DNA of 64,000 nt from Treponemataceae bacterium (GCA_963667725.2 CAXXHO010000004.1:1-64000); one strand, 5' to 3'; positions 5,594-31,560 are shown, counted from the stretch's first letter. Program-made: numbers and translations. Notes: a model not told the origin generated them from the letters alone.

Positions 5594-6391
5594 ATGAAAA
5601 AAAGCCGAAGACCACAATTTGGCCGCGCCGCCGCGCTCGCCCTCGCCTTCGCATTCGCTTTCGCCGCCGCAGGGAAAGTTAAAGCCCAGGGGTCTGACCC
5701 CGCTTTGTTACTTTCAGCGAGCATGGACGCCCTGCGCGACGCCATGTACATGAGCCAGTCCCCTGAAACCGTTGAAAGCGAGGCCGGACGCCTGACCGCG
5801 GCCCTCCGCTCAGCGAACCTCCCCGAGGCCGAGCGGGCGCTGGCACTCGCCCGCGCGGAGTATTATGCCGCGCGGTCATGGAAGGAAGCGGAAGACAAGG
5901 CCAAGGCGATTCCCCACTACGAGGAGGCGATTGTCCAGGCGCGCGCCGCGCTGGCAGTGGGCGAGACGGCGGCACGCCTGATCGCCCTGATGAAGCCCCT
6001 CTCGGAACTCTGCCTCCTTAAAGACATGGCCTTTCTGGTGGTGAACGGTCCGAAAATAGGACAATACGCCAAACGCGCCCTCGTCCTGGAGCCGGGATAC
6101 CCCGCCGCCGTGATCGCCATCGCCGCCTCCAAGGCCTACCCGCCCGCGATCTTCGGCGGGAACCCCAAGGAGGCCCTCGCGGAGATGGAAGCCCTTTCCG
6201 CGAACGGCGCCGGATTGGCGAACGGCACAGGATTGGCGAAGGACGAGCTCTTCGACCTGCGCATGTGCGCGGGCACCGCCTGCGAAAAGCTCGGGCGCAA
6301 GGCCGAGGCCGCCGCCTGGTTCCGCAAAGCCCTCGAGCTCTACCCCGGCAACACCTACGCCCGCGAGCAGCTGAAAAAGGCAGCCCCATGA
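5594..6391 (+). CDS. Exported tetratricopeptide-repeat protein
   Basis: Signal peptide; TPR-like helices (AAAWFRKALELYPGN); contains an in-frame palindrome copy at 5674-5715. Confidence 0.7.
   Translation: MKKSRRPQFGRAAALALAFAFAFAAAGKVKAQGSDPALLLSASMDALRDAMYMSQSPETVESEAGRLTAALRSANLPEAERALALARAEYYAARSWKEAEDKAKAIPHYEEAIVQARAALAVGETAARLIALMKPLSELCLLKDMAFLVVNGPKIGQYAKRALVLEPGYPAAVIAIAASKAYPPAIFGGNPKEALAEMEALSANGAGLANGTGLAKDELFDLRMCAGTACEKLGRKAEAAAWFRKALELYPGNTYAREQLKKAAP
5674..5715 (+). repeat. Outlying copy of the GGGGTC(A/T)GACCCC palindrome inside a CDS
   Basis: gaaagttaaagccca-ggggtctgacccc-gctttgttactttc; core 5689-5701. Confidence 0.8.
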
Positions 6392-18100: not shown

Positions 18101-21100
18101 TTCGACATAGACGACCGGCAAAAATTCTTCCTTCGAAGGAACCTTGACCGCATCACCGTCCAGAAGGGCGGGAGCGGCGGACGCGCCGGCGTCCAGGACC
18201 AGGGACTCGCCCTGGGGCTTGCCGTCCGACGCCCTGCGCGTAAGGAGTATCCTGTCGCGCTTTGCGAATTCGAGCAGGCCGCCGCCCTGGATCGAGAGGA
18301 GTTCGGAAAGGCCTTCTCCGGCGAGCAACTCATAGGCGCCCGGACGGTTCACCTCGCCCGACAGGACGACGATCCGCGCCGCCTTGGCGACGGCGACACT
18401 GTCGCCGGGGCGCAGCAGGGGATCCTGCGCCCGCTCACCGAAACGCTCGGCCTTGAAGAGATCATACGTATGCGCGATACCTTCCGCGCTCGTCACCACG
18501 ATGTTCCGGGTAGAAGATGTGGGGAGGAGGAAGGGTTTGAGCGCTTCCGAAAGGCGCTGCGACCCCGAAACGGGAGCGAAGCCGGATTTGACCACTTCGC
18601 CAGCGATGAAGACCGCCTGGGTCTTGAAGGGCAGCATCACGCGATCGTCGGACTCCAGGGCGAGGTCAAGCGAGGCGTCGTGGGCGAAAAGAAGCCTGTC
18701 GAGGTCCACTTTTACAACCGATTTATCGGCGGCGCGCATGACCACGGCGGCATGGAGATCGGCTTCGCCGGGGAAATTCCCCGCCAGCGGGGCGAGCGCC
18801 TGGGAGAGCAAGAGCCCCTTGCGCCACAGCAGGCGCTTTTCAGCGTACTTCGCCTCGGGAACGGGTTCCTTGGCAGCACCGGCCGCCGCGGTAGCTTCGG
18901 CTTTCTCCACCGCGCCCTCGACATAGATCACCGGCAGGTACTCTTCCCTGGACGGCACGCGGACGCGATCCCCATCGGCGAGCGCCGGGAGGTCTTTTCC
19001 CGCGAGGTCGAACACGAGGCTTTCGGACTCCGGCTTTTCGGCCGTGGCCCGGCGCGTGAGGACGGAGAGGTCTGTCTTGGCGCTTGCAAGGGGCTTGTCG
19101 CTGTAATAATTCATGAGTTCAGAAAGACCCTCGCCCGGAAGGAGCTGGTAGGTTCCCGGCCGCGAGACCTCGCCCTCCAGGCTGACGATGCGCCCGGCTT
19201 TCTTCACTTCCACCACGTCGCCGGGGCGGAGGTAGGGATCCTGCGAAAGGTCCCCTTCCCGCTCGGCCTTGAAGAGGTCGTAGGCGGCCGAAGAGCCGTC
19301 CTCGCTCCTCACCGCGACATCGCGCAGAGAGGAATACTTGGTGAGTAGGGGCTTAACCGCCTCCGACAGCCGTGTGAGGCCCGTGATCCCCACCCAGGCG
19401 GACTTGCCCACCTCGCCGGAGACGAAGGCGTACATCGAGCCGTAGGGAATGACGATGGTATCGTCGGCCGCGAGGGCCACATCGTCGGCGGGAGCGTAGC
19501 GGTAGAGGAGCTTTTCGAGGTCCACGGCCACCTGCGCCGCCTGGCCTTTCCTGACGATGAAGGCGCGCTTAAGGTCGGCGCGCGGGTCGATCTGATCGCG
19601 GATGCCGCGAAGGGCCTGGGAGAGGAGCTGCCCCTGGCGGTAGGCGAGCCGCACGACCCGGTACTGCTCCGCCACCACGGCGCCGGCGTTGCCGGCCTGG
19701 GCGTCCTTCTTGACGCCGAGTTCGGCGCCCGCCACGGCGCCCTGCACGTAGACGACGGGCAGGTATTCCTCGCGCGAGGGGACGCGAACGCGGTCGCCGT
19801 CGCCCAAGGCGGGAAGCGGAGACCCCGCGAGGTCGAACACGAGGCTCTCTCCCCCGGGGAGGGCGGCGGTCGCCTTCCGGGTCAACACTGCTAGATCGGT
19901 CTTGGCGCCTTCCACGGCGCCGTCGCCGTACTTGGCGACAAGCTCGGCCACGCCCTCGCCCGCGAGGAGCTGGTAGGAGCCCGGCTTGCGGACTTCGCCC
20001 TCAAGGGCGACGATGCGGTCGGCCTTGCCCACCTCGACCTGGTCGCCGGGGCGTAGGTAGGGGTCCTGGGTTAGGTCGCCCTGGCGCTCGGCCAGGAAGA
20101 GGTCGTAGCGCGCCAGGGCGCCGTCCGAACTCTTGACTGCGACGTCGCGCAGCGAGCTGAAGCGCGTGGCGAGGGGCTTTACGGCCTCCGAAAGCCGGGT
20201 GAGCCCCGTGACGCCAACCCAGGCCGACTTGGCGACTTCGCCTGTGACGAAGACATACTGGGAGCCGTAGGGGATGACGACCTTGTCGTCGGCGGCGAGG
20301 GCGATATCATCCTTGGAATCAAAGCGGTAGAGGAGCTTTTCCAGGTCCACTTCGACCTGGCCCGAGCCGCCAGCCTTGGCGATGAAGGCGCGCTTGAGGT
20401 CGGCGCGCGGGTCGATCTGGCCGCGGATGCCGCGCAGAGCCTCCGAAAGCATGGCGCCCTGGCGATACGGAATCCGGATAACGCGGTACTGCTGGGTTTC
20501 AACGGCCTCGGCGCCGCCCTGTAGGGCCTCGCGCTTGACGCCAAGCTCGGCGCCCGCGACGGCGCCCTCTATGGAGACTATCGGCAAATACTCTTCCCGC
20601 GAGGGCACGCGCAGGATGTCGCCGTCCGCGAGAACGGGGAACGTTTTTCCGCCAAGGTCGACGACGAGGCTCTCCGCTTCGGGCTTGTCTGCGGTCGCCT
20701 TGCGCGTGAGAAGGGCGCGGTCCGTCTTGGCGCCGTCCAGGGCGCCATCGCCATAGAAGGCGACAAGCTCGGGCAGGCCCTCGCCCGCGAGGAGCTGATA
20801 GGCGCCGACGCGCCGCACCTGGCCTTCGATGGCCACCGTCCGGTCGGCCTTCTTGAGCTCGACGACATCGCCGGGCTTGAGATAGGGATCCCGGGACAGG
20901 TCGCCCGAGCGCCGCGCCTTGAAGAGGTCGTAGGTTGCGGAGGCGCCATCGCGTGAGACAACGGAAACTTCGCGGAGGCTCGAATACTCGCCTGCGAAGG
21001 GAGCGATCACTTCCGAAAGCCTGGAGAGGCCCCAGGCGGTCGCGATGCCTGCCTGCTTCACCTCGCCCCTCACCGTGACCGGGAAGAGCCCCGTGGACGC

Positions 21101-21520
21101 GATGATGAGGGAAGGATTGGAGCCGGGGTAGGATGCCGCGACTTTCTTCTCAATTTGCGCCTTGAGCTGGCGAAAGGTGAGCCCGCGGGACGCGAAGGCA
21201 CCCAGGAAGCCCGCATTGATCGAGCCATCGCCCTCAACCACCAGGTTGATGGTGTCCAGCTGCGCCACCTTGAGGTAGACGAGCGTGTAGACATCGCCCG
21301 GCGTGGCGGGATAGTCCTCGGTGGCCATGGCCAGGAGGGTTTGGGCGCTCTGATCGGGGAGCGCGACGCTGTTCGAGCCTTGCTTGTTGGCCACGGTTCC
21401 GGAGAAGGATCCAGGCATCGTCTGGGCGGCGCCAATGGCTTGCGTAGCCTGGCCAAAGGCAGCGCCAGCCCCCGACAGGATTAGACAGGACGCAACTATG
21501 ATGAACAGGATTTTTCTCAT
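15173..21520 (-). CDS. Giant SLBB-repeat polysaccharide export protein (Wza/KpsD-like), 2115 aa
   Basis: Signal peptide, Poly_export-like N-terminus (PGDVY), seven ~270-aa repeats each with YDLF..GD..DP.L.PGD and GEV.RPG.Y, C-terminal hydrophobic helix. Confidence 0.85.
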   Translation of the reverse strand: MRKILFIIVASCLILSGAGAAFGQATQAIGAAQTMPGSFSGTVANKQGSNSVALPDQSAQTLLAMATEDYPATPGDVYTLVYLKVAQLDTINLVVEGDGSINAGFLGAFASRGLTFRQLKAQIEKKVAASYPGSNPSLIIASTGLFPVTVRGEVKQAGIATAWGLSRLSEVIAPFAGEYSSLREVSVVSRDGASATYDLFKARRSGDLSRDPYLKPGDVVELKKADRTVAIEGQVRRVGAYQLLAGEGLPELVAFYGDGALDGAKTDRALLTRKATADKPEAESLVVDLGGKTFPVLADGDILRVPSREEYLPIVSIEGAVAGAELGVKREALQGGAEAVETQQYRVIRIPYRQGAMLSEALRGIRGQIDPRADLKRAFIAKAGGSGQVEVDLEKLLYRFDSKDDIALAADDKVVIPYGSQYVFVTGEVAKSAWVGVTGLTRLSEAVKPLATRFSSLRDVAVKSSDGALARYDLFLAERQGDLTQDPYLRPGDQVEVGKADRIVALEGEVRKPGSYQLLAGEGVAELVAKYGDGAVEGAKTDLAVLTRKATAALPGGESLVFDLAGSPLPALGDGDRVRVPSREEYLPVVYVQGAVAGAELGVKKDAQAGNAGAVVAEQYRVVRLAYRQGQLLSQALRGIRDQIDPRADLKRAFIVRKGQAAQVAVDLEKLLYRYAPADDVALAADDTIVIPYGSMYAFVSGEVGKSAWVGITGLTRLSEAVKPLLTKYSSLRDVAVRSEDGSSAAYDLFKAEREGDLSQDPYLRPGDVVEVKKAGRIVSLEGEVSRPGTYQLLPGEGLSELMNYYSDKPLASAKTDLSVLTRRATAEKPESESLVFDLAGKDLPALADGDRVRVPSREEYLPVIYVEGAVEKAEATAAAGAAKEPVPEAKYAEKRLLWRKGLLLSQALAPLAGNFPGEADLHAAVVMRAADKSVVKVDLDRLLFAHDASLDLALESDDRVMLPFKTQAVFIAGEVVKSGFAPVSGSQRLSEALKPFLLPTSSTRNIVVTSAEGIAHTYDLFKAERFGERAQDPLLRPGDSVAVAKAARIVVLSGEVNRPGAYELLAGEGLSELLSIQGGGLLEFAKRDRILLTRRASDGKPQGESLVLDAGASAAPALLDGDAVKVPSKEEFLPVVYVEGAVQKAEAAAVGTAGAAPAEPKYGEKRVMWRKGLLVSQTMAILMAGIPDQADYRSAMVVRAADTSVVKIDLERLLFAHDASLDLALEADDRVVLPFKVQAVFITGEVAKSGFAPVSGAQRLSEALKPFLLPSSSTRSVVVTSAEGVPAAYDLFRAERFGESAQDPLLRPGDSVAVAKATRVVNLAGEVNRPGTYELLPGEGLSELLSVQGAGLREFAKRDRILVTRRASDGKPSGESLVVDAGASGAQAADAPALLDGDTVTVPSREEFLPVVYVEGAMASGGYGIQRVLWREGLLVSQALKPIAASLPAAADLRRAKLVRAKDGAEVQLDLEKLLFAFDPALDSVLGAGDRIILPYGSRDVFVSGEAARSGWVQADGTLRLSQAIKAFLLPTSSTRAVALRSTDGKETVYDLFKAERFGQIAQDPVVAPGDAITLRRAGRVVVLEGEVFRPGIYELLPTEDFSALISVQGAGLRDTAQADRVQITRKASDTKTAGGIALVDALSKDSKAELFDGDKVRVPSMDEYLPVVYIEGAVTGEYSVQRVAWRDGMRVADLIRPLRDRIPATADLKKAFITKSSADVPVEVDLEKILYSYDPAYDPALEPEDRLVIPLGSMYVFVTGEVQKSVWVAITGLTRLRDIVSANLTRWSSTRDVAVKSRNGVEQRYDLFRAERYGDLTQDPFLRPGDVVTVNRLERLVTIGGEVRRPGTYQLLAGEGMKDLVERYADGFTEKANPTRIQVVRLLSAASAVGEKLQFDYKVAPDFSLNQYDSITVPAWQDLLPVAWFEGAIGVGTGGATLESAKRVAYTFFPGETVSEAAQAMRKNFSEVSDLSASYISRKGKRIAVDLSKYLYDRETLYDVALEANDVIVVPFRQFFVTVSGAVKLAGRYPYVPDRTWEYYVGLAGGFDSDKNSGDKVTIYDVASKKVVSKGRVIMPEDNIVADTNSFMYSLLKVTSVLSTAISLIALVISLLP

Positions 21521-22776
21521 CGCGATACACCTTTACCGGAACTCAGGGCCTTGAACTTGGCCACGACTTCGGGATCATTTTTCATTTTTTCGAAGGACTC
21601 GACCACGAAGGCGAGGAGGATGGAAAGGAAGAAGCCCGCCATGGCGGCGACGACGCAGATCATGCCGCGGGAGGGGCCGGATTTCTTGTCGGGGACCTCG
21701 GCCATCTCCAGCACCTGGAAGACGGGATCCTGGCCGGCGGCGTTGAGCTTGGCCAGCTCGTACTGCTGGGTGAGGATCTTGAAAAGCTCGGTCTGCACGA
21801 GGAGGTCGCGCTGGATCTTGGCGTACTCGAAGGCGATGGCTGGCAGCTCCTTCTGGCTGGGCATGACCCGGCTGCCCGAACCCTTGCCCGTTTCGATCTC
21901 CTTGATCTTGGCGAGGAGCCCATCGCGCTCGCTCTTGAGCTGGAGCATCTGGGGGTCGGCCACGCGGGAGATCTTCTCGTAGTTGGAGATCTCCATTTCC
22001 TTAAGGATGAGCTCGCTGCGCAGCCGGGCGATGATGGTGATCTGCTCGGTGGCCAGGGCCTCGACCTGCGTGACGCCGTACTTGGTCTGGAATTCCTTGA
22101 CCTTGACCTCGAGCTCCTTGACCGAGTTGTCCACCTCGGCGAGCTTTTTCTCAAGAAGTTCTTTTTGCTGCAGGGTCTTGTCGCCGCTCAGGGTGGCGAA
22201 GCGGGCTTCCAGGATGCTCACGGTTTCATCGACGACTTTCTTGGCGAGGACGGGGTCGATATCTGTGAACGAGACGGTGAAGAGGTTCGTCTTAACATCC
22301 AGCTTGGCGCTGAGGTTTTTCTGTATGCCCTTGCGAACGTCGGAGACTAAGGGCTTTTTCTTCTGATTCTTCTTTCTCGTCGAAAAGCCATATTTGGCAT
22401 CGAGGGCATCGAGGGTGGTGTTGCTGGTGGCGAGCACTTCAGCGAGGGCGCCGTTTGTGTTGCCGCCCACGCCTACGCCCGCCATTCCCGCCAGGCTGGA
22501 GAGGCCGGAGGCCGCCAGCGCCGCGGAGACGCCACTCGAAGAGCTGCTCGTCTGGATGACCATCGTCGCCTTGGGCGTGTAGACGTTCGGGAGATAGCTT
22601 TTATCGGGGGGGAGGACCAAGGAGCCAATCGCGTAGAGTAAGACGCCAACCACGGCAAGGGCGGTGACGCCTATGATGATCCTTTTGCGTTTCCAAAGCA
22701 CCGCAGCCAGATCGAGCAGGCTGATCTCATCGTCGTCCTGGTTTTCGGGAATTTTCACACTCTCATTTTCGGCCAT
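21517..22776 (-). CDS. Wzz/Wzc-N polysaccharide co-polymerase (no kinase domain)
   Basis: DDEISLLDL, two TM helices, coiled coil, PDKKSGPSR motif. Confidence 0.88.
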   Translation of the reverse strand: MAENESVKIPENQDDDEISLLDLAAVLWKRKRIIIGVTALAVVGVLLYAIGSLVLPPDKSYLPNVYTPKATMVIQTSSSSSGVSAALAASGLSSLAGMAGVGVGGNTNGALAEVLATSNTTLDALDAKYGFSTRKKNQKKKPLVSDVRKGIQKNLSAKLDVKTNLFTVSFTDIDPVLAKKVVDETVSILEARFATLSGDKTLQQKELLEKKLAEVDNSVKELEVKVKEFQTKYGVTQVEALATEQITIIARLRSELILKEMEISNYEKISRVADPQMLQLKSERDGLLAKIKEIETGKGSGSRVMPSQKELPAIAFEYAKIQRDLLVQTELFKILTQQYELAKLNAAGQDPVFQVLEMAEVPDKKSGPSRGMICVVAAMAGFFLSILLAFVVESFEKMKNDPEVVAKFKALSSGKGVSR

Positions 22777-22818
22777 AGATCCTCACAAGATTTTTTTTGG
22801 TACTGCTTCTTAGCGATC

Positions 22819-22902
22819 AGTTGAAATACGGGGTCAGACCCCATTTTATTACTTCTAAGCTATCACAGTTGAAAATCGGGGTCAGACCCCGTTCTGTTAC
22901 TT
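22819..22902. repeat. Two tandem palindrome copies (48-bp period)
   Basis: ggggtcagacccc cores at 22830-22842 and 22878-22890, each preceded by agttgaaa. Confidence 0.9.
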
Positions 22903-22907
22903 CATAT

Positions 22908-23948
22908 TTATACGCCCGTGCAGCCTGATAAACAGGTGGGAACAGGCGATTTTTGGCTCTTTTTGGTTAAATATTCATCCAGACAGTCGCGCCAGGGATG
23001 CTGGAAGAGAACCATGGAATGGGCGAGCTTTTGCGCGGAGAGGTGCTGATGAAGGGGCCGAGCCGCCCTGCCGGGGAAAGCCGAGGCGGGCTGGGCAACG
23101 ATCTCGACGGGGCGATCGATCAGCTTGTGGTCCAGGGCGAGGCGGACCACTTCGGCGGCGAACTCGGGCAGGGCGGCACGGCCCCAGTCAGCGTAGTGAT
23201 AGAGGCCGCCGGGAGTCGGGTGATAGCTCGACGGAACGCCAGGGTAGACTTTGCCATCTTCCCCCACCACTTCAGGAGGGATGCGCTCGGCGAGGGTCAT
23301 GTCGAAAACAACGCGGGCGAGAGATTCGCCGAAGGTGGGCGAGACGATTTCGTCGTCGGGGACCTGGACGAGGCCCGAGCCGCCCTTGGCGCCGGCGCGA
23401 AGGATGGACTCGATTAGGGTGTCAGCCTCGGTGGGGGGCGCGAGGGACGCGAGGAGCGCAGGGGGTGCTGGGGGCGCGAGGGGCGCAGGGGGCGCGCCGT
23501 AGAGCCAGCCTGTCCGGAGCACGATAGCCCAGGGATCGGCCGAAAGGATGGCGCGCTCGGTTTCCAGCTGGACGCGGCCGAGGGCGCCAATGGGCGCGGC
23601 GGGAGACTTTTCCGTGTAGTCCCGCGAGGCGAGGGAGCCGGAAAATACGCAGGCAGAGCCGATTGCGATGAAGCGGGCATGCTGTTTCTTGGCGACGCGC
23701 AGCAGCGCAAGCGGCTGAGCGAAAGGCAACGCAAGCGGCTGAACAAGCTCGGGTTCGAGGGGCATGCCGCAATAGAATATCTGGGAGAAAGGACCTTCTC
23801 GAGCGGCAAAGGTATCGAGAACGACAGGATAAGCAGGATCGAAATCGGTGCGGCTTTCCGCCACCGAAAGGCCGGCGGACTGGAAGAAGACTGAGATGGC
23901 CCGGCCTAGGGGCGTATGGGCGCCGGCGATCCAGACGCGCTTGATCAT
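22908..23948 (-). CDS. RmlD-like sugar nucleotide-binding protein with degenerate catalytic motifs
   Basis: VLRTGWLYG, VPDDEIVSPT, GLYHY, RAARP are RmlD-like; GxxGxxG and YxxxK are missing. Confidence 0.75.
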   Translation of the reverse strand: MIKRVWIAGAHTPLGRAISVFFQSAGLSVAESRTDFDPAYPVVLDTFAAREGPFSQIFYCGMPLEPELVQPLALPFAQPLALLRVAKKQHARFIAIGSACVFSGSLASRDYTEKSPAAPIGALGRVQLETERAILSADPWAIVLRTGWLYGAPPAPLAPPAPPALLASLAPPTEADTLIESILRAGAKGGSGLVQVPDDEIVSPTFGESLARVVFDMTLAERIPPEVVGEDGKVYPGVPSSYHPTPGGLYHYADWGRAALPEFAAEVVRLALDHKLIDRPVEIVAQPASAFPGRAARPLHQHLSAQKLAHSMVLFQHPWRDCLDEYLTKKSQKSPVPTCLSGCTGV

Positions 23949-25120
23949 ACGGGGTCAGACCTTAGGTTAAAAATTGGGGTCAGACCCCGGTTTTTAACGG
24001 CGTAGTTTTTCTCTATCCAGGTGCGGTATTCGCCGGAACGGACGTGGGAGCACCATTCCTGATTATCCAGATACCAACGGACCGTGGCGCGAAGGCCGGT
24101 GTCGAAACTGTGGCGGCGGTCCCAGCCGAGCTCGGTCTTGAGCTTGGAGCAGTCGATGGCGTAGCGACGGTCGTGGCCGGGGCGATCCTTGACGTAGGTG
24201 ATGAGGGCTTCGAGCGAGGCTGGGGCGCGGCCGCTTTCCTCCGCGACAAGGGCGATGAGGCGGCGCAGGAGGGTGATGTTCTCCCACTCATTCTCGCCGC
24301 CGATGTTGTAGGTTTCGCCGGCGCGGCCGCGGTTCATGATCGACCAGACCGCCTCGTTGTGGTCCTCGACATAGACCCAGTCGCGAATATTTTTACCGTC
24401 GCCGTAAACGGGGAGCGGCTTGCCTTCCAGCATATTGAGGATCATCAAGGGGATGAGCTTTTCCGGGAACTGGTAGGGGCCGTAGTTATTGGAGCAGTTC
24501 GAGACGGTGACCGGGAGGCCATAGGTATGGAAATAGGCCTTGGCGAGGTGGTCGCTCGAGGCTTTGGACGCCGAATAAGGCGAGCGGGGATCGTAGGGTG
24601 TGGATTCGGTGAAGTAGCCCGAGTCGCCCAGAGAGCCGAAGACCTCGTCCGTGCTGACGTGGTGGAAGAGGACGTCGGCGCGGATGCCGCCGGCTGGATT
24701 AGCCCAGGCTTTGCGGGCGACATCGAGGAGGGTGTAGGTGCCCAGGACGTTGGTGCGGATGAAGGCTTCGGGGCCGAGAATCGAGCGGTCGACGTGGCTT
24801 TCAGCGGCGAAGTGGACGACGGTGTCGATGGCATAGTCGGCGAAGACTTTCTCGACGAGGGCACGATCGGTGATGTCGCCCTTGACGAAGGCGTAGCGAA
24901 GGGCGGGGGCAGAGGCGGCGCCAGGGACGGCAGAGGCTGCGCCGGGGCTGCCGAAGCGCGCGGCGATGTCGGCGAGGCTCTCGGGGTTGCCGGCATAGGT
25001 GAGGGCGTCGAGGTTGATGATGCGGCCGGAAAAATCGGACCGGGCGAAGAGCCAGTGGATGAAGTTCGAGCCGATGAAGCCCGAGCCGCCGGTGACTAGG
25101 ATGGAGGACAATTTTCTCAT
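23945..25120 (-). CDS. rmlB: dTDP-glucose 4,6-dehydratase
   Basis: VTGGSGFIGSN, DALTYAGN, HFAAESHVDRS, HVSTDEV, YSASK, DRPGHDRRYAID. Confidence 0.95.
   Translation of the reverse strand: MRKLSSILVTGGSGFIGSNFIHWLFARSDFSGRIINLDALTYAGNPESLADIAARFGSPGAASAVPGAASAPALRYAFVKGDITDRALVEKVFADYAIDTVVHFAAESHVDRSILGPEAFIRTNVLGTYTLLDVARKAWANPAGGIRADVLFHHVSTDEVFGSLGDSGYFTESTPYDPRSPYSASKASSDHLAKAYFHTYGLPVTVSNCSNNYGPYQFPEKLIPLMILNMLEGKPLPVYGDGKNIRDWVYVEDHNEAVWSIMNRGRAGETYNIGGENEWENITLLRRLIALVAEESGRAPASLEALITYVKDRPGHDRRYAIDCSKLKTELGWDRRHSFDTGLRATVRWYLDNQEWCSHVRSGEYRTWIEKNYAVKNRGLTPIFNLRSDPV
23951..23998. repeat. Partial plus full palindrome copy inside the rmlB 3' end
   Basis: ggggtcagacc (23951-23961), then gttaaaaatt-ggggtcagacccc-ggtttttaac (core 23976-23988). 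Confidence 0.92.
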
Positions 25121-25132
25121 TGGGATTCCTTG

Positions 25133-25171
25133 AAAGTTGAAATTTGGGGTCAGACCCCGATTTTTAACTTT
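25133..25171. repeat. Palindrome copy containing the RAYT stop codon
   Basis: aaagttgaaattt-ggggtcagacccc-gatttttaacttt; core 25146-25158. Confidence 0.95.
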
Positions 25172-25899
25172 ATATGCTTAGAGATGGCAGCTGGAGTGAG
25201 ACCAAGGTAGCGGGCGATCTGCGATTGGCTGTAGCCATCGCGAAGGGCGCTTTTAATGGCTTCATCACGAGCTGCGCGCTTTGCGCCATCGCGCTTACGC
25301 GCTAAATTCGCTACAAGAAAGTGTTGTGAGAGCGATTTGCACATGGCGGGCCTCAAGGCGGCAAGGGCTTCAGATCCGGCTTCAGCTCCGGCAACTTCGG
25401 CCTGCGGCAGAAACTTTGTACTGAAGAATTCCGTAAGTTGGGCGATTTCATCATGACTTAGCGCGGGGTCTTTCGTTGCCGAACTCGCCCAAGGGTATTC
25501 ACCGATCCGCGATGTCATGCCTTTTTTAATGGGATTACGCTCGATATATTTTATAAGAACATTAAGGTACTTTTCATCGTGCACAAACCAGGATTTGAAG
25601 CGGCCCTGCCATAGGGAACCGACGCGCTCATATTTACGGTTGAAATATTGCGTATAGTCCTGATCCAGGCGCTTGAGCGCGAACGAAAGATTCTCAAACC
25701 GCGTTTCCAACAACAAATGATAATGATTCGGCATGAGGCAATAAGCGACGACATCGAAATCGAAGGCCGCTTTCTGCTCATCGACCAAGCTTAAGAATCG
25801 CTGACGATCGGGATCATCCAGAAAGATTAACCTTTTTTCTACGCCCCTATTGATGACATGATAGAGGCCGATCCGATTCGTTCGCGGCAATCGCGACAT
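25150..25899 (-). CDS. RAYT-like HUH/Y1 tyrosine transposase with C-terminal HTH
   Basis: YHVINRG..IF, YCLMPNHYHL (HUH), LWQGRF, KYIERNP (catalytic Tyr), YPWAS; C-terminal GYSQSQIARYLGL HTH. Confidence 0.9.
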   Translation of the reverse strand: MSRLPRTNRIGLYHVINRGVEKRLIFLDDPDRQRFLSLVDEQKAAFDFDVVAYCLMPNHYHLLLETRFENLSFALKRLDQDYTQYFNRKYERVGSLWQGRFKSWFVHDEKYLNVLIKYIERNPIKKGMTSRIGEYPWASSATKDPALSHDEIAQLTEFFSTKFLPQAEVAGAEAGSEALAALRPAMCKSLSQHFLVANLARKRDGAKRAARDEAIKSALRDGYSQSQIARYLGLTPAAISKHIKLKIGV

Positions 25900-25964
25900 G
25901 ACCAGGCACCTCCGCGTACGCTATCTATGCGCGCGAAGGGTTGAGAAGCGATTCAAAGGCCAGG

Positions 25965-26010
25965 GCAAAAAGTTAAAATTTGGGGTCAGACCCCGATTGT
26001 TAACTTTTGC
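25965..26010. repeat. Palindrome copy containing the AbiEii stop codon
   Basis: gcaaaaagttaaaattt-ggggtcagacccc-gattgttaacttttgc; core 25982-25994. Confidence 0.95.
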
Positions 26011-26849
26011 AGGGCATCGGCGAGAATGGCTTGGAGGTAGAACCAATAATCGTTGGAGAGAGCGGTTTCGACAATCGGCCCCGAGGGGAGGAATCGACGC
26101 ATCTCGTTCCGGAAGTCTTCCCGGATCGAAGTACCAGCACTGATACGCTTGATACGCGACGTGAGCAAATCTAAAAACTCTGACGACGTTCTGTGATGAT
26201 CGACTATTTTGCGGGCAATAAAATCGGCATTCAGCGCAACACCCTGGCGCTCGAGCCAGGCGATGTCCCATAGATCGCGATTCTTGATTCTATTCGGCCT
26301 GAAGGCCAAAGCGATGAACTTATCAGCGAGGATTTCCTTCCGGCTCTGCGCGCGAAGTATAAGTCCCGCGGTTCCCATATCGACACCGTATTGATTGCGG
26401 AGCATCATAGGCCGCGCATCGTAACTGGGAATGGCACAAATATCGATATTGATGTGCTGAGCTTTCAGGTCTTTGCGCTCCGGCCGCGTCTGGATTTTGA
26501 CTTTCCAGGTATCGACATTTCCGGTTTCCCTGACCGGTTCCGATACATCGACCGGCAATCCGTACTTCTCCTGAAGGCCATTTACCAGCGCTTTGGCCAA
26601 TTCCGCGAGCTGGGAGGCATTGAAGTCGGCCCCGCCCGTAAGATCGAGGTCTTCACTGAGCCGCTCCGAACCGTAACACGCCCTGAGGCAGGTGCCTCCC
26701 ATAAAGGTCAGGTGGACCAGCAGCCCCGCATCGCTCATCAATCGAAGGATGTCGTGATGAAGCAGCTCTTTTTCGACCACGGGACGAAGCACCGCGAGTT
26801 CGGGACTATTGCGGATCGCTACGTCGACGAAGGCGTCAAAGAGACTCAT
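25986..26849 (-). CDS. abiEii: AbiEii nucleotidyltransferase toxin (type IV TA)
   Basis: EKELLH, FMGGTCLR.CYGSERLSEDLD, ADK..A, RDLWD; likely start ATG 26849. Confidence 0.9.
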   Translation of the reverse strand: MSLFDAFVDVAIRNSPELAVLRPVVEKELLHHDILRLMSDAGLLVHLTFMGGTCLRACYGSERLSEDLDLTGGADFNASQLAELAKALVNGLQEKYGLPVDVSEPVRETGNVDTWKVKIQTRPERKDLKAQHINIDICAIPSYDARPMMLRNQYGVDMGTAGLILRAQSRKEILADKFIALAFRPNRIKNRDLWDIAWLERQGVALNADFIARKIVDHHRTSSEFLDLLTSRIKRISAGTSIREDFRNEMRRFLPSGPIVETALSNDYWFYLQAILADALQKLTIGV

Positions 26850-27408
26850 TACGCGCCTTTTCACAATTTGGGGTCAGACCCCGAATTTTAACCAGATCCA
26901 TGGAACGTTTGGCCGAGCGCATATCGGCGAGCGCAAGGGCCGTGGACGCGCGCCAAAGCCGACATGGGCCGTCCCAGGTGAGTTCGGGAGCGAGCCGGTC
27001 GGGAGTCTTGTTCGTGTGGATGAATTCGATCGTGCCGAAACCCTCGCATTCGATGCGCCCGGATCGCCCGGAACTCATCAGCGTGATCCAGGAAAACGGT
27101 ATTTGAGAAATGATGCCGGCATCGGAGAGCACCGTTTCCAGGCTCAGATAATTGAAACACTCGGCGCGCAGGCGAGCCGCGGCATGGAAGAGCACTTTAT
27201 CACGCGGGTAATCCACCTTTTCATAGAGATAGAGATTCCTGCAAAGACGCCTCAGGGATCCTGCTTTCGTTGCCCTGGAAACGAGGGTCTTGAAGGTATC
27301 ATAGGACGACTCGGGCAGAAGCGCATGGAGATCCCGCAGCGAGAAAAGGTAGCGCTCGCGGCCGGCGAGCCGCGCAAGCGTCTCTGCAAAGATTCTGGCT
27401 GGCTGCAT
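26836..27408 (-). CDS. abiEi: AbiEi antitoxin (type IV TA)
   Basis: YLSLETVLSDAGIISQIP, GTIEFIH motifs; directly upstream of AbiEii. Confidence 0.85.
   Translation of the reverse strand: MQPARIFAETLARLAGRERYLFSLRDLHALLPESSYDTFKTLVSRATKAGSLRRLCRNLYLYEKVDYPRDKVLFHAAARLRAECFNYLSLETVLSDAGIISQIPFSWITLMSSGRSGRIECEGFGTIEFIHTNKTPDRLAPELTWDGPCRLWRASTALALADMRSAKRSMDLVKIRGLTPNCEKARNESL
26859..26892. repeat. Palindrome copy between antitoxin and toxin
   Basis: tttcacaattt-ggggtcagacccc-gaattttaac; core 26870-26882. Confidence 0.92.
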
Positions 27409-27440
27409 TTCCGCTCCAATCGACTGCCGATAGGCGGCAA

Positions 27441-27457
27441 GTTACACTAAGTGTAAC
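27441..27457. promoter_or_regulatory. Probable AbiE operator
   Basis: gttacact-a-agtgtaac inverted repeat upstream of abiEi. Confidence 0.5.
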
Positions 27458-27480
27458 CTAATGTCGATCAAAATGCAAGA

Positions 27481-27503
27481 AAGTTAAAAATTGGGGTCAG
27501 ACC
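27481..27503. repeat. Left half of palindrome copy split by IS110
   Basis: aagttaaaaattggggtcagacc; right half ccccgagttttaactt at 28894-28909. Confidence 0.9.
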
Positions 27504-27519
27504 TCTATGAGAATCCCCG

Positions 27520-28620
27520 TCAAGCGATTTTTTGAGAAAATAGAATTCTCTCAAATTTCCGTTTCTTGATCGAGAATGTTCCTTCCTGAAGGAACCAGTT
27601 CGGCTCCTTGTTCTTCAGGATGTAGAATATCTGCCTGATCGTCCGGCCTACTACGGCCGCACGAATCTTGTTCTTGGACTTGCCCACGGCATGCTTCGTG
27701 TAACGGAGCAGGTTCGGGTTTCCGTCGACCAGGTGGGCGACGCTCTGCAGGAGGATCTCGAAGGCCATTTTTCGCCCAGCTTTGTTGAGCCTGCCGATAT
27801 GGATCGTGTTGTTTGACGCATCGACGCGTGGAGCCGCCCGGAGATAGCTCACCAGGTTCTTGCTCGTATGGAAACGGTCGATAGTGATGATATCCGCCAT
27901 AATGCAGACGGCACCAAACACGCTGATTCCGCTGACCCCTATCAGCAGGCCTACTTGTTCACTGTAGCGGATGACTCCTATCGATTCGATCATCGAGCGC
28001 AACTGAGCCTTGAACGCGTCCAGTTCCTCATACCGATGCTTTTCCTGGCGGGCGATTATCCCAACTTCAGGTGGCAGTCGTGGGTGTTCCAGGTAGCGCT
28101 CCAAACGTTCAATGAGGAAGCCTTTGTCAACCTGCACGAGCCACTGGCGAAACAATGCGTAGAGATTGTTCTTGAGGGCTGTCATGTCGGCGTTCACGCG
28201 TTGGTATTGGCTAATGAGCATCCGTAGCCGTTGCGTGTCCTCGTCGGCAACCGTGACTTCAGGAAAGCCGTCGTTGGGATCGTTGTTCTCAAGATGCTGC
28301 TTCAGACAATCAGCCAGCTTCTTCGCATCGATGCTGTCCGTCTTCTTCGCTGTCATGAAGATCTGCGGCATGCTTAAAGGATTCACGACGAAGGCCCGAG
28401 CGCCTGCCGCAACAATCATTCGTGCCAGCGTATGCGACCCTGAGCCAGCCTCCACGCAGACGGCGCAACCCGGGTGCAGCGATCCGATGAAGTGTGTTTC
28501 CATCTGCTCCATCGGGTACTGGCTTTTCCTTCGCTCTACTTCCCCTTTCTCGCCGATAATGATCCGGTGCACCGTGACTTGCGTGGAATGGAGATCAACA
28601 CCGATAAATTCCTTGTCCAT
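27520..28620 (-). CDS. IS110-family DEDD recombinase/transposase
   Basis: IGVDLHS, CVEAG, KTDSIDA RuvC-like DEDD; GVSGIS..A..I.DI..IDRF and PRVDAS C-terminal domain. Confidence 0.92.
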   Translation of the reverse strand: MDKEFIGVDLHSTQVTVHRIIIGEKGEVERRKSQYPMEQMETHFIGSLHPGCAVCVEAGSGSHTLARMIVAAGARAFVVNPLSMPQIFMTAKKTDSIDAKKLADCLKQHLENNDPNDGFPEVTVADEDTQRLRMLISQYQRVNADMTALKNNLYALFRQWLVQVDKGFLIERLERYLEHPRLPPEVGIIARQEKHRYEELDAFKAQLRSMIESIGVIRYSEQVGLLIGVSGISVFGAVCIMADIITIDRFHTSKNLVSYLRAAPRVDASNNTIHIGRLNKAGRKMAFEILLQSVAHLVDGNPNLLRYTKHAVGKSKNKIRAAVVGRTIRQIFYILKNKEPNWFLQEGTFSIKKRKFERILFSQKIA

Positions 28621-28654
28621 CGATCCTCCTTCCCTAAAGGTGGTGGTTTCGACA

Positions 28655-28800
28655 GAAATGGATCGGGCGAATCCCCAGTCCTCTATTCGGGTTTCCGTGC
28701 TTAACAGCGCGGCCCCATTAGATCGTCCGGTGAAGGCTGGCTAATCCCCGAACGGGCTTACGTTCGCGCGTATCCCAGTCTGACCCCCAGCCTTCATCTT
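28655..28800 (-). ncRNA. Putative bridge/seek RNA in the IS non-coding end
   Basis: Stem tgaaggctgg/ccagccttca encloses GGGGUCAGAC and UUCGGGG (both strands of the target); AUAGAGG matches the donor junction. Confidence 0.65.
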
Positions 28801-28864
28801 TTATCCGTCGATTCCGATTTCCTTATGATACCTCCACCGGGCAATACCGCAAGTCAGCGAATCT

Positions 28865-29311
28865 TCACTGGCTTTCGATTGTTCTCATGATATCCCCGAG
28901 TTTTAACTTGGAAGGATCCATAAGGGAGAGGTCACGGAAATATTCGCGGTAGTAACCGCGGTCGCGAGCCAGGAGACGATCGGCATTCAAACGCGCGTGG
29001 GCAGCGATTAGAAAATCAGGCAGAATGCGTCGGGACTGGCCGCGGTTTTTCAGGTACGAAGCGTAGATCGAGCCTGCGAGCGTGGCGCTCTCAAGGGAGG
29101 AAGGCAGGAAGTCTAGGCCCACATCGCCCAGGAAGGCCGCGAGTTGCTGGTCGGAAGCCAACGCTGGCCTCAGTTCGGCGACAACCGATTCGCAGACAAC
29201 CAGCCTGCCCGAAGCTCGGGCTTCAGCTAACGCAGCTTCCGAATTCGCTGCGTGGCGCGGATCATCAGTGAGAATATCGAGAAGCACCGATGTGTCGACT
29301 GCGGTTGTCAT
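28865..29311 (-). CDS. vapC: VapC PIN-domain toxin (C-terminus altered by the IS)
   Basis: TAVDTSVLLD, VVAEL, LPDFLIAAHA, LLARDRGYY; start ATG 29311. Confidence 0.88.
   Translation of the reverse strand: MTTAVDTSVLLDILTDDPRHAANSEAALAEARASGRLVVCESVVAELRPALASDQQLAAFLGDVGLDFLPSSLESATLAGSIYASYLKNRGQSRRILPDFLIAAHARLNADRLLARDRGYYREYFRDLSLMDPSKLKLGDIMRTIESQ
28894..28909. repeat. Right half of the IS-split palindrome
   Basis: ccccgagttttaactt. Confidence 0.9.
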
Positions 29312-29532
29312 CCGCGAACCTCGTCCAAATACGCATCGACATCGGAGATGCCCCCAGGAAGATGCCCTTTGCCCCGCCATGTTCTCAGCGCGTCCTGAGG
29401 TTCTTTCTTGGTTCCGATGATTTTACCCTGTACCAACTCGAATTCGATGATCGTACCAGGACGTATACCCAGCTTGGTGCGGATAGTCTTGGGCAGGGTA
29501 ATTTGGCCTCGTTCAGATACGATGGTTTTCAT
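29308..29532 (-). CDS. AbrB/MazE-type antitoxin
   Basis: VSERGQITLPKTIRTKLGIRPG; ATGA overlap with vapC. Confidence 0.88.
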   Translation of the reverse strand: MKTIVSERGQITLPKTIRTKLGIRPGTIIEFELVQGKIIGTKKEPQDALRTWRGKGHLPGGISDVDAYLDEVRG

Positions 29533-29625
29533 ACTTTTAAGGTACGTATTCATACTTTAATTGTCAAGGCCAGCATCAGCACGCTGGCGCAGGGCACCGG
29601 GTACCGCGTGCCGCAGCCAGGGACT

Positions 29626-29655
29626 AAAAGTTAACAAATGGGGTCAGACCCCCTA
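29626..29655. repeat. Palindrome copy abutting the stop codon of the dehydratase
   Basis: aaaagttaacaaat-ggggtcagacccc-cta; core 29640-29652. Confidence 0.9.
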
Positions 29656-30843
29656 CATTTTGCTATCGAGGAATTTGCCGGTTTCTTTGTGGGCGAACTC
29701 GGGGATGGTGGCGTTGAAGAGATCGATGAGGTCGGCGCGCGTCCAGGTGCCACGAGCACGCATGGACGCGATCGAGGACTCGAAATGCTCAAGAGCAGCG
29801 GCGTTGTAGGTTGGAGCGTTCTTGATCACGCCGATCGATTCGAATCTTTGCATATCGAGCGTTTCGATATCGGTATAGAACTCTTCAAAGTCCTTTTCAC
29901 CCGTGGTGTCGCTGGCGAAGAAGTAGACCGGCCAGCGATGACATGCTTTAAGCTCAGAGACGCGGGCACGGGCTTCCTCTTCGGTGGCGCACTCGACGGG
30001 CTCGTAGCCGCGCGCCTTCAGGTAGCGCACCGCTATCTCGGAGAAGGTGATGAGATTGGCGCCAGCATCCAGCTTGGGGAAGAAGAGATCGCGGTTTTCC
30101 CCGAGGAGGGCGGACATGAGGCAGAGCTCGCCGGACTCCTTGGGCGTGACGAAATAGCGCCGGACATCGTTGGGCGCCGCGAGCGGCTGCTCCTTCTCCA
30201 TGCGCCGGTTGAAGCCATAGAGGAGACTGCCATCCGAAAAGGCCACGTTCGCGAAGCGCGCCGTGGACACCGACAGCTCGAGGCTCCGGCGCATCAGGAA
30301 ATACTCCATGATGCGCTTGGAGGCGCCCATCATGTTGACCGGGTTGGCTGCCTTGTCGGTGGAGACGCAGAAATACTTTTTCGCTCCCTTGGCGGCGGCC
30401 TGTCGCATGGTCCTGTCGGTGTTGAAGACATTGACATCCACCATGCGCATGAGCGTCCATGGATCCTTCTCCGAGCGCACATGCTTGAGGGCCGAGAGGT
30501 TGAGGACATAGTCGTAGCCCTGCCCCGAGGCCATGAAGGCGTCGAAGATATCGCTTCCCGCGTCGATGGCGAAGGTGGCGAACTCGCCAGCAGTGTAGCC
30601 AAGGGAGGAACGCAGATCACGCACCAGCTCGACCATGTTGTTCTCGCTGATATCCACCACATGGAGCAGCTTGGGATTGCGCCGGAATATTTCGCGCGTG
30701 ACCGCCTGGCCGATCGACCCCGCGCCGCCGATGACGAGGAAGCGTGATGCCGCTACTAGACGGGACAGATCGCTTTCGCGGGAATCGAGGTCGGCGGTGA
30801 AGAGTTCGGAATCCCGGCCAATATTAGTAAGTAATTTATCCAT
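29653..30843 (-). CDS. UDP-GlcNAc 4,6-dehydratase, soluble (LgaA-like)
   Basis: GGAGSIG, LSALKHVRSE, VSTDKAANP, GASK, ARFANVAFSDGS, GEK. Confidence 0.88.
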   Translation of the reverse strand: MDKLLTNIGRDSELFTADLDSRESDLSRLVAASRFLVIGGAGSIGQAVTREIFRRNPKLLHVVDISENNMVELVRDLRSSLGYTAGEFATFAIDAGSDIFDAFMASGQGYDYVLNLSALKHVRSEKDPWTLMRMVDVNVFNTDRTMRQAAAKGAKKYFCVSTDKAANPVNMMGASKRIMEYFLMRRSLELSVSTARFANVAFSDGSLLYGFNRRMEKEQPLAAPNDVRRYFVTPKESGELCLMSALLGENRDLFFPKLDAGANLITFSEIAVRYLKARGYEPVECATEEEARARVSELKACHRWPVYFFASDTTGEKDFEEFYTDIETLDMQRFESIGVIKNAPTYNAAALEHFESSIASMRARGTWTRADLIDLFNATIPEFAHKETGKFLDSKM

Positions 30844-30888
30844 TAATACTCCAAAACATTTCACAACTAAATAGTGAATTTTTAATAT

Positions 30889-31560
30889 TTAATCCTCATC
30901 AAGCTTCAACATTTCAGGAGGAGTGGGCATGTCTTTGAACCACCTCCGCCATAGAGTTGTGCGCGGGCAGACCAACGCCCACATAGTAAGAAAAATTACT
31001 TTAAAGTAATTTCCAATTGTATAATGATTGAACCACCAAAGCTCAAGTTCACCTTTGAAAGGAGCTATCACCATATCATGATTATATTCCCTATCCCCTC
31101 CAATTCTATCAAGAACACCCTCCTCATCCCGAAAAACTAGCGAAGCAATGCCTGTCAAGCCTGGTGTCATCCTCAATATTATTTCTCTTGTCTTCTCTGG
31201 ATAATACGCTAGATGCTGCACGACAATAGGCCGTGGCCCTACAACACTCATCTGGCCAATGAAAATATTAAGAAGTTGAGGTAATTCATTAATCTTTGTT
31301 TTTCGTAAAAAATGTCCCATTGGTAATACTCTAGGATCTCTTGATTGCGTTATAAAACCGCCTGGTAAATTTGGGCTATTTTTAAGCATCGTTGCAAATT
31401 TGTATACCTTAAATTTTACTCCGCCTTTTCCAACGCGAGTCTGCGAGTAAAAAATATAATGCTCTCCTGTAAGCTTTAGGCCTATCATGATTGGAATCAT
31501 AAAAGGAAATAAAATAACTATTGCAATACCAGAAAAAAGTATATCAAAAATACGTATCAT
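30889..31560 (-). CDS. Initiating sugar transferase (monotopic phosphoglycosyl transferase)
   Basis: RIFDI, FKVYKFATM, DPRV..G.FLRKTKINELPQL.NI..G.MS.VGPRP, PGLTG. Confidence 0.92.
   Translation of the reverse strand: MIRIFDILFSGIAIVILFPFMIPIMIGLKLTGEHYIFYSQTRVGKGGVKFKVYKFATMLKNSPNLPGGFITQSRDPRVLPMGHFLRKTKINELPQLLNIFIGQMSVVGPRPIVVQHLAYYPEKTREIILRMTPGLTGIASLVFRDEEGVLDRIGGDREYNHDMVIAPFKGELELWWFNHYTIGNYFKVIFLTMWALVCPRTTLWRRWFKDMPTPPEMLKLDED

Follow-up and report, generated by a model that had tools for sequence, protein, structure and literature searches.

A palindromic site family clustered around TIRYT-type HUH enzyme genes and bordering variable gene modules in the surface-polysaccharide clusters of a Treponemataceae bacterium

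The stretch of DNA analysed here, called the window throughout, comprises the first 64,000 nucleotides of contig C4 (C4:1-64000) in the genome assembly of a Treponemataceae bacterium (G000; 4.22 Mb, 8 contigs). Between 22.8 and 29.7 kb, the window holds an array of sugar-pathway and toxin–antitoxin (TA) genes, with single copies of a hairpin-forming palindrome at most of the gene junctions and a gene for a Y1 HUH enzyme among them. The palindromes form one site family that clusters around the enzyme genes of this genome, keeps a single orientation within the arrays and shares its core with the end motif of the enzyme's own family. The points at which gene modules differ between related arrays fall on the sites and, in the best resolved cases, at the level of the core. 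That the palindromes are the sites of the encoded TIRYT-type enzyme, seeded in cis, and that recombination at their cores made the module arrays, is a reading to which we give an even chance; cassette exchange driven by the enzyme is plausible. An earlier note on this DNA, made from the sequence, had proposed an integron-like capture system run by an HUH enzyme. Its interpretation is partly supported: the sites go with the enzyme and the modules turn over, a role of the enzyme in the shuffling is conjectural, and the system is not related to integrons.

A palindrome family at the gene junctions

The core of the element is a GC-rich palindrome of 13 nt, GGGGTC-A-GACCCC. A search of the window with GGGGTCWGACCCC, allowing at most one mismatch, gave nine matches against 0.02 expected, and none of 100 shuffled sequences reached nine. 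Eight of the nine lie within the 22.8–29.7 kb span, with cores at 22830, 22878, 23976, 25146, 25982, 26870, 27493 and 29640; the copy at 27493 has one mismatch and is interrupted after GACC by an insertion sequence. The ninth match, at 5689, lies outside the span and has T as its centre base on the + strand. A partial core at 23951 is visible in the sequence and has a weak profile score (23944-23961). All eight copies of the span were found where the earlier note had placed them. The single orientation that it described was also confirmed, the centre base being A on the + strand in all eight copies of the span and in the partial one. GC skew, as a guide to the direction of replication, follows the local gene orientation and was uninformative.

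Each core carries AT-rich arms, with the consensus AAAGTTAAAAAT- on the left and -ATTTTTAACTTT on the right, which pair together (GTTRA...TYAAC); core and arms make up a hairpin of about 40 bp. A T...G pair flanks the core in all five copies from 23976 to 27493 (the right half of the last one restarting at 28894), exactly as claimed before. For three sites, DNA folding of the + strand yielded energies between −9.7 and −11.0 kcal/mol and z-scores between −4.1 and −4.9. The idea that one strand folds better is weakly true: the + strand was the more stable in three of the four sites folded (by 0.1, 1.2 and 2.0 kcal/mol), and the outermost site, at 22816, folded weakly on both strands with the − strand better by 0.1 kcal/mol.

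The sites are located at stop codons or a few bases away from them, and the reading frames of the HUH enzyme and of AbiEii stop at a TGA formed on the coding strand by the centre of the core. Placement at gene boundaries, as first described, needs refining at two sites. Site 23976 falls within the 3' extension of the rmlB frame, and site 26870 is within the overlap of AbiEi and AbiEii instead of between modules. The related genome G020 has no site at that same spot in the AbiEi/AbiEii junction, and the sites therefore spread on their own, in a REP-like manner. Two cores (23951-23962 and 27493-27503) stop at the same point, after GACC; the second was cut by an IS110-family element and the first, which might be the trace of some older event at that point, is directly adjoined by a new complete site.

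The features of the window on which the argument draws are given below, sites having been located by motif and profile search unless another source is named. The gene names of the earlier note are all backed by Pfam.

5675..5716, no strand assigned: outlying palindrome copy, centre T on +
15173-21520, −: SLBB-repeat polysaccharide export protein, 2115 aa (Pfam)
21517..22776, −: Wzz/GNVR chain-length determinant gene (Pfam PF13807, PF02706)
22816..22856, +: site 1, core 22830-22842, weak arms, first of a 48-bp tandem pair
22864..22904, +: site 2, core 22878-22890
22908..23948, −: RmlD-like reductase gene, containing a 27-bp tandem repeat (Pfam PF04321)
23944..23961, +: partial core, stopping after GACC, 2 nt from the start codon of the rmlD-like gene (sequence and profile)
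23964..23999, +: site 3, core 23976-23988, within the extended rmlB 3' end
23945..25120, −: RmlB-type dTDP-glucose 4,6-dehydratase gene (Pfam PF16363, 294.7 bits)
25132..25172, +: site 4, core 25146-25158, whose centre supplies the TGA stop of the enzyme frame
25150..25899, −: Y1 HUH enzyme gene, TIRYT/RAYT type, 249 aa, weak C-terminal helix-turn-helix match (Pfam Y1_Tnp)
25967..26008, +: site 5, core 25982-25994, whose TGA closes the AbiEii frame
25986..26864, −: AbiEii nucleotidyltransferase toxin gene (Pfam PF08843)
26862..26894, +: site 6, core 26870-26882, in the AbiEi/AbiEii junction, poor left arm
26836..27408, −: AbiEi antitoxin gene (NCBIfam NF047376, 183 bits; Pfam)
27480..27503, +: site 7, left portion, with the arm and part of the core, interrupted by the insertion sequence (sequence)
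27502..28893, −: IS110-family element, 1392 bp, with transposase 27520-28620 (Pfam DEDD; NCBIfam NF033542, 155 bits)
28894..28909, +: site 7, remaining core and right arm (sequence)
28865..29380, −: PIN (VapC-type) toxin gene, whose frame as listed extends into the end of the insertion sequence (Pfam PF01850)
29308..29553, −: MazE/AbrB-type antitoxin gene (Pfam PF04014)
29625..29657, +: site 8, core 29640-29652, left arm and core only
29653..30864, −: Polysacc_synt_2 (CapD-like) dehydratase gene (Pfam PF02719)
30889..31560, −: Bac_transf initiating sugar transferase gene; its junction with the Polysacc_synt_2 gene has no site (Pfam PF02397)

Two of the sugar-cluster genes show variation of their own. 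The SLBB exporter heads paralogous clusters in shorter and longer versions. The tandem repeat of the RmlD-like gene (23434-23496, 2.3 copies) is 27 bases shorter in the contig from one run, indicating that its length varies between strains.

Clustering of the sites near the enzyme genes

A scan of the genome for the core, which had been suggested as a check, revealed sites concentrated round the enzyme genes. The assembly contains 29 exact cores, and a profile search (nhmmer, E<=0.01) returned 32 copies in four areas: C4 at 5.7-85 kb, C5 at 693.6-706.4 kb together with two copies at 752-756 kb, C6 with two copies, and C3 with one. Up to 65 kb from the two Y1 enzyme genes, a zone that amounts to 5.2% of the genome, 29 of the 32 copies are found (binomial P ~3e-34, for a distance chosen after the data were seen).

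The second enzyme gene (C5 694837-695589) is part of a second, paralogous polysaccharide cluster. The order of this array is SLBB exporter, RmlD, RmlB, enzyme, Bac_transf, AbiEii (truncated), AbiEi, PIN-Phd, AAA_14 ATPase, PIN-MazE, Polysacc_synt_2, DDE insertion sequence, AAA_14-DUF4143, M78 peptidase with a helix-turn-helix (HTH), DegT fragment and nucleotidyl transferase. Its junctions from rmlD|rmlB onward hold 12 sites, and all 12 have the same orientation, as do all eight in the array of the window. No inverted site pairs occur within the arrays, where sites stand singly and point the same way. On C2 and C6, two further paralogous sugar clusters, both devoid of an enzyme gene, contain no site, even when searched with a relaxed pattern.

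A second, unrelated repeat was also noticed in this genome. [quoted passage not shown] These are found on C4 (65233-65397, 66120-66284, 69286-69453, 70831-70995, 75196-75366, 76429-76593 and others) and on C6 9695-31676 (L002, L005), between AAA_14-DUF4143, PRiA4_ORF3 and HicAB genes, and one abuts the palindrome site at 66300.

A Y1 HUH enzyme of the TIRYT type

The enzyme matches Y1_Tnp of Pfam over residues 13-122 with 50.0 bits, against a gathering cut-off of 23. Its C-terminus gives matches to HTH_38 and Sigma70_r4_2 at E 4.7e-4, below their cut-offs, and several homologues carry PF13384 (HTH_23). With NCBIfam NF047646 (REP_Tyr_transpos, E. coli type), it scores 68.5 bits, below the equivalog cut-off of 80. 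The alignment with the TnpA-REP structure PDB 4er8 (E 0.0016) spans the HUH motif and the tyrosine: H-Y-H of the enzyme stands opposite H-M-H, and its tyrosine in Y-I-x-x-N-P, which we take to be the catalytic one, opposite Y-I-Y-I-N-P. A protein search returned 913 relatives (E<=1e-10), several of them named RayT or REP-associated tyrosine transposase by their sources, and the closest named relative comes from a Rectinemataceae genome. A contig search with the enzyme found only two close relatives among the 80 loci retained.

The flanks of distant homologues link the enzyme family to the core. They were compared at 77 loci from many phyla, with ~38-49% identity in the catalytic domain. GGGGTCA upstream with its complement downstream is present at 42 of the 77 loci, the opposite arrangement at 3 and the motif read backwards at none. 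The strict published consensus occurs in the inverted arrangement at 17 of the 77 loci and in none of the controls.

According to the available text of the original description, TIRYT genes are flanked by terminal inverted repeats (TIRs) with the motif GGGG[AT][CG]A[CG] (Di Nocera 2013, PMC3733652), which is also given in a later classification (Quentin 2018, PMC6006769). There, TIRYT appears as TnpA-Y1 subclass 2.1, long proteins with a C-terminal HTH, the criterion for the class being an HTH of the Bac_DnaA_C, HTH_23 or HTH_28 type. In the same source, as far as its available text goes, no REP-like sequences were found near subclass 2.1 genes, and Bertels' RAYT group 1 was mapped to this subclass. 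Low-copy flanking repeats have been reported for group 1, the commonest 16-mer having ~12 occurrences in the available part of that study (Bertels 2017, PMC5581495).

On these sequence comparisons, we assign the Y1 HUH protein to the TIRYT type (RAYT group 1, TnpA-Y1 subclass 2.1). The RAYT-type transposase recognized by the earlier note is upheld by Y1_Tnp and, through the GGGGTCA flanks, narrowed to one class. Neither this class nor its GGGG[AT][CG]A[CG] flanks are new to the literature (Di Nocera 2013, Quentin 2018). Every full core in turn contains GGGGTCAG, which matches the flank motif, and by its letters the core is the TIRYT-family end motif doubled back upon itself. The centre base leaves the exact heptamer GGGGTCA on one strand only; the orientation of a site therefore has meaning.

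The two enzyme genes have 82% DNA identity, are syntenic beside rmlB and have not multiplied as a unit. The same position beside rmlB is kept in G020, L074 and L075. The ratio of non-synonymous to synonymous divergence (dN/dS) between the two copies is 0.13, indicating purifying selection. Their dS is 0.56, compared with 1.02 for rmlB, 1.09 for AbiEi and 1.64 for Polysacc_synt_2; this low value may come from a later exchange between the two arrays or from effects of codon usage.

Module differences between arrays

Seven arrays from six sources were compared for the gain, loss and reordering of genes between sites, another check proposed in the earlier note. Modules turned out to be present, absent, moved or replaced, with the breaks at sites. 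The C4 and C5 arrays share blocks of ~82% identity that begin and end at sites. Three modules, Bac_transf, PIN-Phd and AAA_14, each bounded by sites, are extra in the C5 array, and the extra piece of the C4 array is the IS110 element. The order in G020 is rmlB, site, enzyme, site, Bac_transf (cut by an insertion), site, AbiE, site, Polysacc_synt_2; missing there are all three of the modules that separate AbiE from the dehydratase in C5. In L075, an extra VapBC-type module with a site on either side separates rmlB from the enzyme gene. PIN-MazE adjoins the exporter instead of the dehydratase in G005 and L074, and in G005 PIN-Phd and AAA_14 are placed beyond the dehydratase. In G002, a genome of the same genus lacking the enzyme, no modules intervene: rmlB is followed by one decayed palindrome and then by Bac_transf and Polysacc_synt_2.

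A strain-level swap is seen in a metagenome contig (L166) that is 95-98% identical to the C5 array and in which AbiH (170 bits) replaces AAA_14-DUF4143. At the right junction of this exchange, identity of the two sequences sets in with the core, after differences in the last 2-3 bases of the left arm, beside it; at the left junction, they diverge from the first base after the core.

The arms fall into three co-varying types (a, b and c), and sites are either matched (a|a', b|b', c|c') or chimeric. The C5 block of PIN-Phd, AAA_14 and PIN-MazE is bracketed by the reciprocal chimeras S5 (c|b') and S8 (b|c'), and the corresponding junction of L075, which has the same outer flanks, holds a c|c' site that is intact. 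Taken together, these three sites would be the pattern expected if a circle carrying b|b' had crossed with a c|c' site within the core. Pairing of the arms in trans at module ends was tested for every C5 module and fits the three-module block only, and no single module.

Some further observations concern the same arrays. Relative to L166 (C5 705919-706323 / 706323-710794), C5 has a 4.5-kb insertion that adjoins the site at 706336 and is accompanied by a 383-bp duplicate of the 3' end of the following DegT gene. The 3' tails of AbiEii and Bac_transf resemble each other. A contig joint from 23396 to 27352 was rejected as unreliable, with only 24 letters on one side.

Polarity, small changes at the sites and the IS110 element

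Sites with one arm are also informative. In all eight one-armed sites listed in G000, the arm is kept on the left of the + strand, and the core's last C is directly followed by unrelated sequence; five of these sites have A as the centre letter, two have T and one has C.

Contigs of a close strain, from two metagenome runs, differ from the window at several sites. An intact palindrome is present where the window holds the 1392-bp IS110 element, the insertion in the core having a 2-nt CC overlap and the element-free joint in the close strain being precise. A single site replaces the 48-bp tandem pair (joint 22817->22866), 10 more bases follow right behind 29652 and match the right arm that is missing in the window, and small indels lie beside two other sites.

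The IS110 element is single-copy, no further copies being found in the genome. In a lake-water metagenome it occupies its own 1399-nt contig with ~99% identity and 13 differences, and 8 further runs from other studies each contain 0.12-0.15 of the words of the stretch, about the share of the insertion sequence. The 272 bp upstream of its transposase are the place where a core-matching guide RNA would lie. Elements of the IS110 family have been reported to target REP sequences in the available text of two studies (PMC1525189, PMC12288879). Insertion of the element in a core fits this preference and supports a REP-like nature of the sites.

Distribution among relatives and other genomes

The bare core is found in 13 of 41 relatives, being armless in G018 and differently armed in G012. 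The armed element is much rarer: it is carried by 5 of 69 genomes of the family (G000, G005, G020, G046 and G069), and a sample of 400 further genomes from the phylum had none. Three of the 69 (G000, G020 and G046) carry the enzyme clade (E<=1e-40). An association of the sites with this clade, whose absence the earlier note had listed as a refutation, is supported: all three clade genomes have the element, and the clade is missing from every one of the 64 genomes that lack the element; these family counts come from kin that are not independent and include two incomplete genomes, G005 and G069.

Cores also occur in other settings, other genera of the family among them. G012 contains 53 of them on ~45 contigs, in both orientations and many with GTCAA...TTGAC arms, and a segment of G003 (G003:C17:40268-40626) consists of head-to-tail runs of cores, many 21 bp apart; neither has a close enzyme homologue. 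The metagenome contig L157 (10001-12700), from an unrelated organism, has four cores in one orientation with three units between them, namely an IS200-type Y1 gene with other hairpins, a BrnA antitoxin gene, and unassigned genes of 218 aa and 70 aa. By eye, the gene past the fourth core looks AbiEii-like. The Y1 gene of L157 has no significant similarity to the enzyme, despite the similar layout. Metagenome matches to the armed pattern were mostly single sites and were not counted as members, because chance could give dozens of them by a rough estimate.

Proposed mechanism and alternative explanations

If the palindromes are sites of the TIRYT-type enzyme, they would have been seeded mainly in cis, within ~60 kb round the enzyme genes, in the two surface-polysaccharide clusters and a nearby accessory-gene island. 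The enzyme would nick single-stranded DNA at the 3' edge of the core and join the end to a second site, giving either a circle with one site or an integration. Since the array sites are single and point in the same direction, recombination between cores would remove or insert the intervening DNA. The modules handled in this manner would be AbiE, the VapBC-type pairs (PIN with MazE/AbrB or Phd), AbiH, the AAA_14 ATPase and the enzyme gene itself, and the sites may double as two-way transcription stops. We infer joints made by the enzyme from the chemistry of its superfamily (TnpA-REP, IS200/IS605) and from the fact that no other recombinase is common to the variable arrays. The fullest version, in which a domesticated TIRYT acts as a single-stranded DNA site-specific recombinase that inserts, excises and swaps modules at the 13-nt core, in the manner of an integron and within surface-polysaccharide clusters, is a tentative proposal that we regard as unlikely to hold in full.

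Several observations weigh against an origin of the arrays by enzyme-made recombination at the cores. The signature resembling attL and attR is clean in one case only, and the PIN-MazE module of the window lacks it. A simple core crossover would have restored c|c' in G020, where the junction is c|b'. The close strain (runs X1 and X4) shows no module-level difference in the array of the window, and no excised circle, empty-site polymorphism or rare junction was detected, in data where run X24 gave only 6 reads and contigs hide rare forms. Sites are also present between core sugar-pathway genes. Together with the seeding of one within the TA operon, this means that a site alone marks no mobile module. 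Direct repeats of ~40 bp could yield site-bounded deletions without a dedicated enzyme. As for the link with the enzyme, the 65-kb distance was fixed post hoc; G005 (94% complete) and G069 (97% complete) have the element and no enzyme of the clade was found in them; the same core, with other arms or none, is present in G012 (53 dispersed copies) and G018 (8 copies), where there is no close enzyme; and it also stands in the unrelated array of L157, beside an IS200 with its own hairpins.

The main rival explanation is that the palindromes are ordinary repeats of the REP or TIR type, acting as passive patches of homology, and that general recombination and horizontal exchange shape the modules. 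It accounts for the sites between housekeeping sugar genes and for the one inside the TA operon, which were also what fitted the weaker alternative of the earlier note, REP-like seeding at gene ends. The small indels and the 48-bp tandem duplication resemble repeat instability, the G020 junction fits a crossover in the right arm and not in the core, two genomes carry the element without the enzyme clade, and the low-copy flanking repeats of RAYT group 1 are reported in the available text of PMC5581495. Against it, differing sites are identical only over the 13-nt core, and 13 nt is short for RecA-type recombination. The swap of AbiH and the ATPase, like the reciprocal chimeras, breaks at the core, and the uniform direct orientation (12/12 in C5, 8/8 in the window) is atypical of REP pairs and inverted dimers as the available texts describe them. 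On balance, we hold passive repeats to be a somewhat unlikely, but serious, explanation.

It is also conceivable that the palindromes are mainly two-way intrinsic terminators or RNA-stability hairpins with no bearing on DNA mobility. A terminator scan picks up the sites on both strands, each with a putative A-rich tract, GC stem and T-rich tail, and the sites are at or near stop codons. A terminator would not need 13 identical core bases and shared arms at 32 places, and this function leaves unexplained the confinement to 5% of the genome with absence from the paralogous clusters, the site in the AbiEi/AbiEii overlap and the core motif in the flanks of distant enzyme homologues; a search of 21-32 kb against Rfam (E<=1) gave no match. 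As the whole explanation, this is improbable. A terminator role is likely to be an addition to the function of the sites proposed above, not an alternative to it.

The third possibility is that the palindromes are attC-like sites worked in trans by integron integrases of the genome. Three integrases score above the TIGR02249 cut-off (C7:37069-37989, C1:34408-35331 and C5:550880-551806), and the TA and small-defence cargo and the uniform orientation are cassette-like. None is encoded on C4, the contig of the window, in agreement with the absence of an integrase stated in the earlier note. The attC sites known from integrons have the AAC box first and the GTT box last, contain unpaired bases and measure 55-140 bp. 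The arrays beside the three integrases follow this plan, with sites of 115-130 bp that begin with an ...AAC box and end with a GTT... box; a crude scan counted 14 on C1 10-60 kb, 7 on C5 530-575 kb and 2-3 on C7. The palindrome is ~40 bp long and nearly perfect, has no unpaired bases and shows the GTT/AAC boxes in reverse order. The real attC sites share no sequence with it, which led us to reject an identity of the sites with attC, and all three integron regions are free of palindrome copies. The genome thus holds two distinct kinds of array side by side, and action of the integrases on the palindromes is highly improbable.

Finally, rearrangement by an IS110-family RNA-guided recombinase targeting the core, for which the element sitting precisely in a core and the known REP targets of the family could be cited (PMC1525189, PMC12288879, in their available text), is the least probable explanation of all, as the element is single-copy and absent from the variable arrays of C5, G020, L075 and L166 and from the close strain.

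The locus provides the TIRYT class (RAYT group 1, subclass 2.1) with a defined 40-bp site and with a polarity, in which arm and core are kept and the break comes after the last C of the core. It also offers natural 'filled', 'empty' and 'swapped' states, making the role of a TIRYT enzyme testable by oligonucleotides and PCR. If core recombination by the enzyme is real, it would represent a second, independent bacterial route to cassette arrays on folded single-stranded DNA, and would tie phage-defence and TA modules to clusters that determine the cell surface, which phages often recognize. If the enzyme does not move the modules, the locus is a clear case of a low-copy repeat family spreading only near its enzyme gene.

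Comparison with known systems

The closest described systems are the TIRYT genes, or TIRtrons. In the available text of the three relevant studies (PMC3733652, PMC6006769, PMC5581495), they share with the present locus a long Y1 HUH protein, GGGG[AT][CG]A[CG] flanks (GGGGTCAG here), a repeat family of low copy number and a scattered occurrence indicative of horizontal transfer; the C-terminal helix-turn-helix of the class has a weak, putative counterpart here. Among published TIR families, some are clustered and self-complementary. The present sites differ in that the motif is a 13-nt perfect palindrome with paired AT arms, in that single, directly oriented sites stand at almost all junctions of two polysaccharide clusters, and in that the TA and Abi modules between them vary among relatives with breaks at the core. 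Cargo modules or arrays are not described for TIRYT in the available text of those studies. More widely, the palindromic form of the site, direct arrays in polysaccharide clusters, TA/Abi cargo and breakpoints in the core were not found in the accessible parts of the literature; the exact core sequence appeared in no paper, and no enzyme-linked cassette array in titles or the first part of abstracts.

REPtrons (Ton-Hoang 2012, PMC3333891; Corneloup 2021, PMC8266576) resemble the locus, in the available text of both papers, in having a Y1 HUH gene bracketed by its own hairpin sites and in the position of these sites outside genes, at gene ends, where they are terminator-like. The TnpA-REP of E. 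coli is reported there to cut and join single-stranded REPs in vitro just outside the hairpin (PMC8266576). The foot of the present site is GTTR...YAAC, with no GTAG (5' GT[AG]G) foot. Moreover, 32 copies occur near the gene, not hundreds genome-wide, inverted pairs (BIME/REPIN) are absent, and the similarity between the proteins is weak (E 0.0016 to 4er8, NCBIfam score under the cut-off).

The IS200/IS605 elements and their gene-less derivatives likewise depend on a Y1 enzyme acting on hairpins of one strand. They are excised as a single-stranded circle between two like-oriented hairpins. Unlike these elements, the two enzyme copies of this genome, 82% identical, occupy the same position beside rmlB and not varied sites, and the left and right ends of a module are the same site, common to neighbouring modules.

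With integrons and integrase-less attC clusters, the arrays share small, TA-rich accessory modules placed between sites that fold as DNA and have one orientation. In both, insertion sequences target the sites and the number of sites equals the number of modules plus one. No attI or common promoter was identified in the palindrome array. The arrays differ from integrons in that the candidate enzyme is an HUH tyrosine nuclease and not a tyrosine recombinase, in that the apparent break is at the central core and not at one end of the site, and in that the palindrome array is embedded among essential pathway genes.

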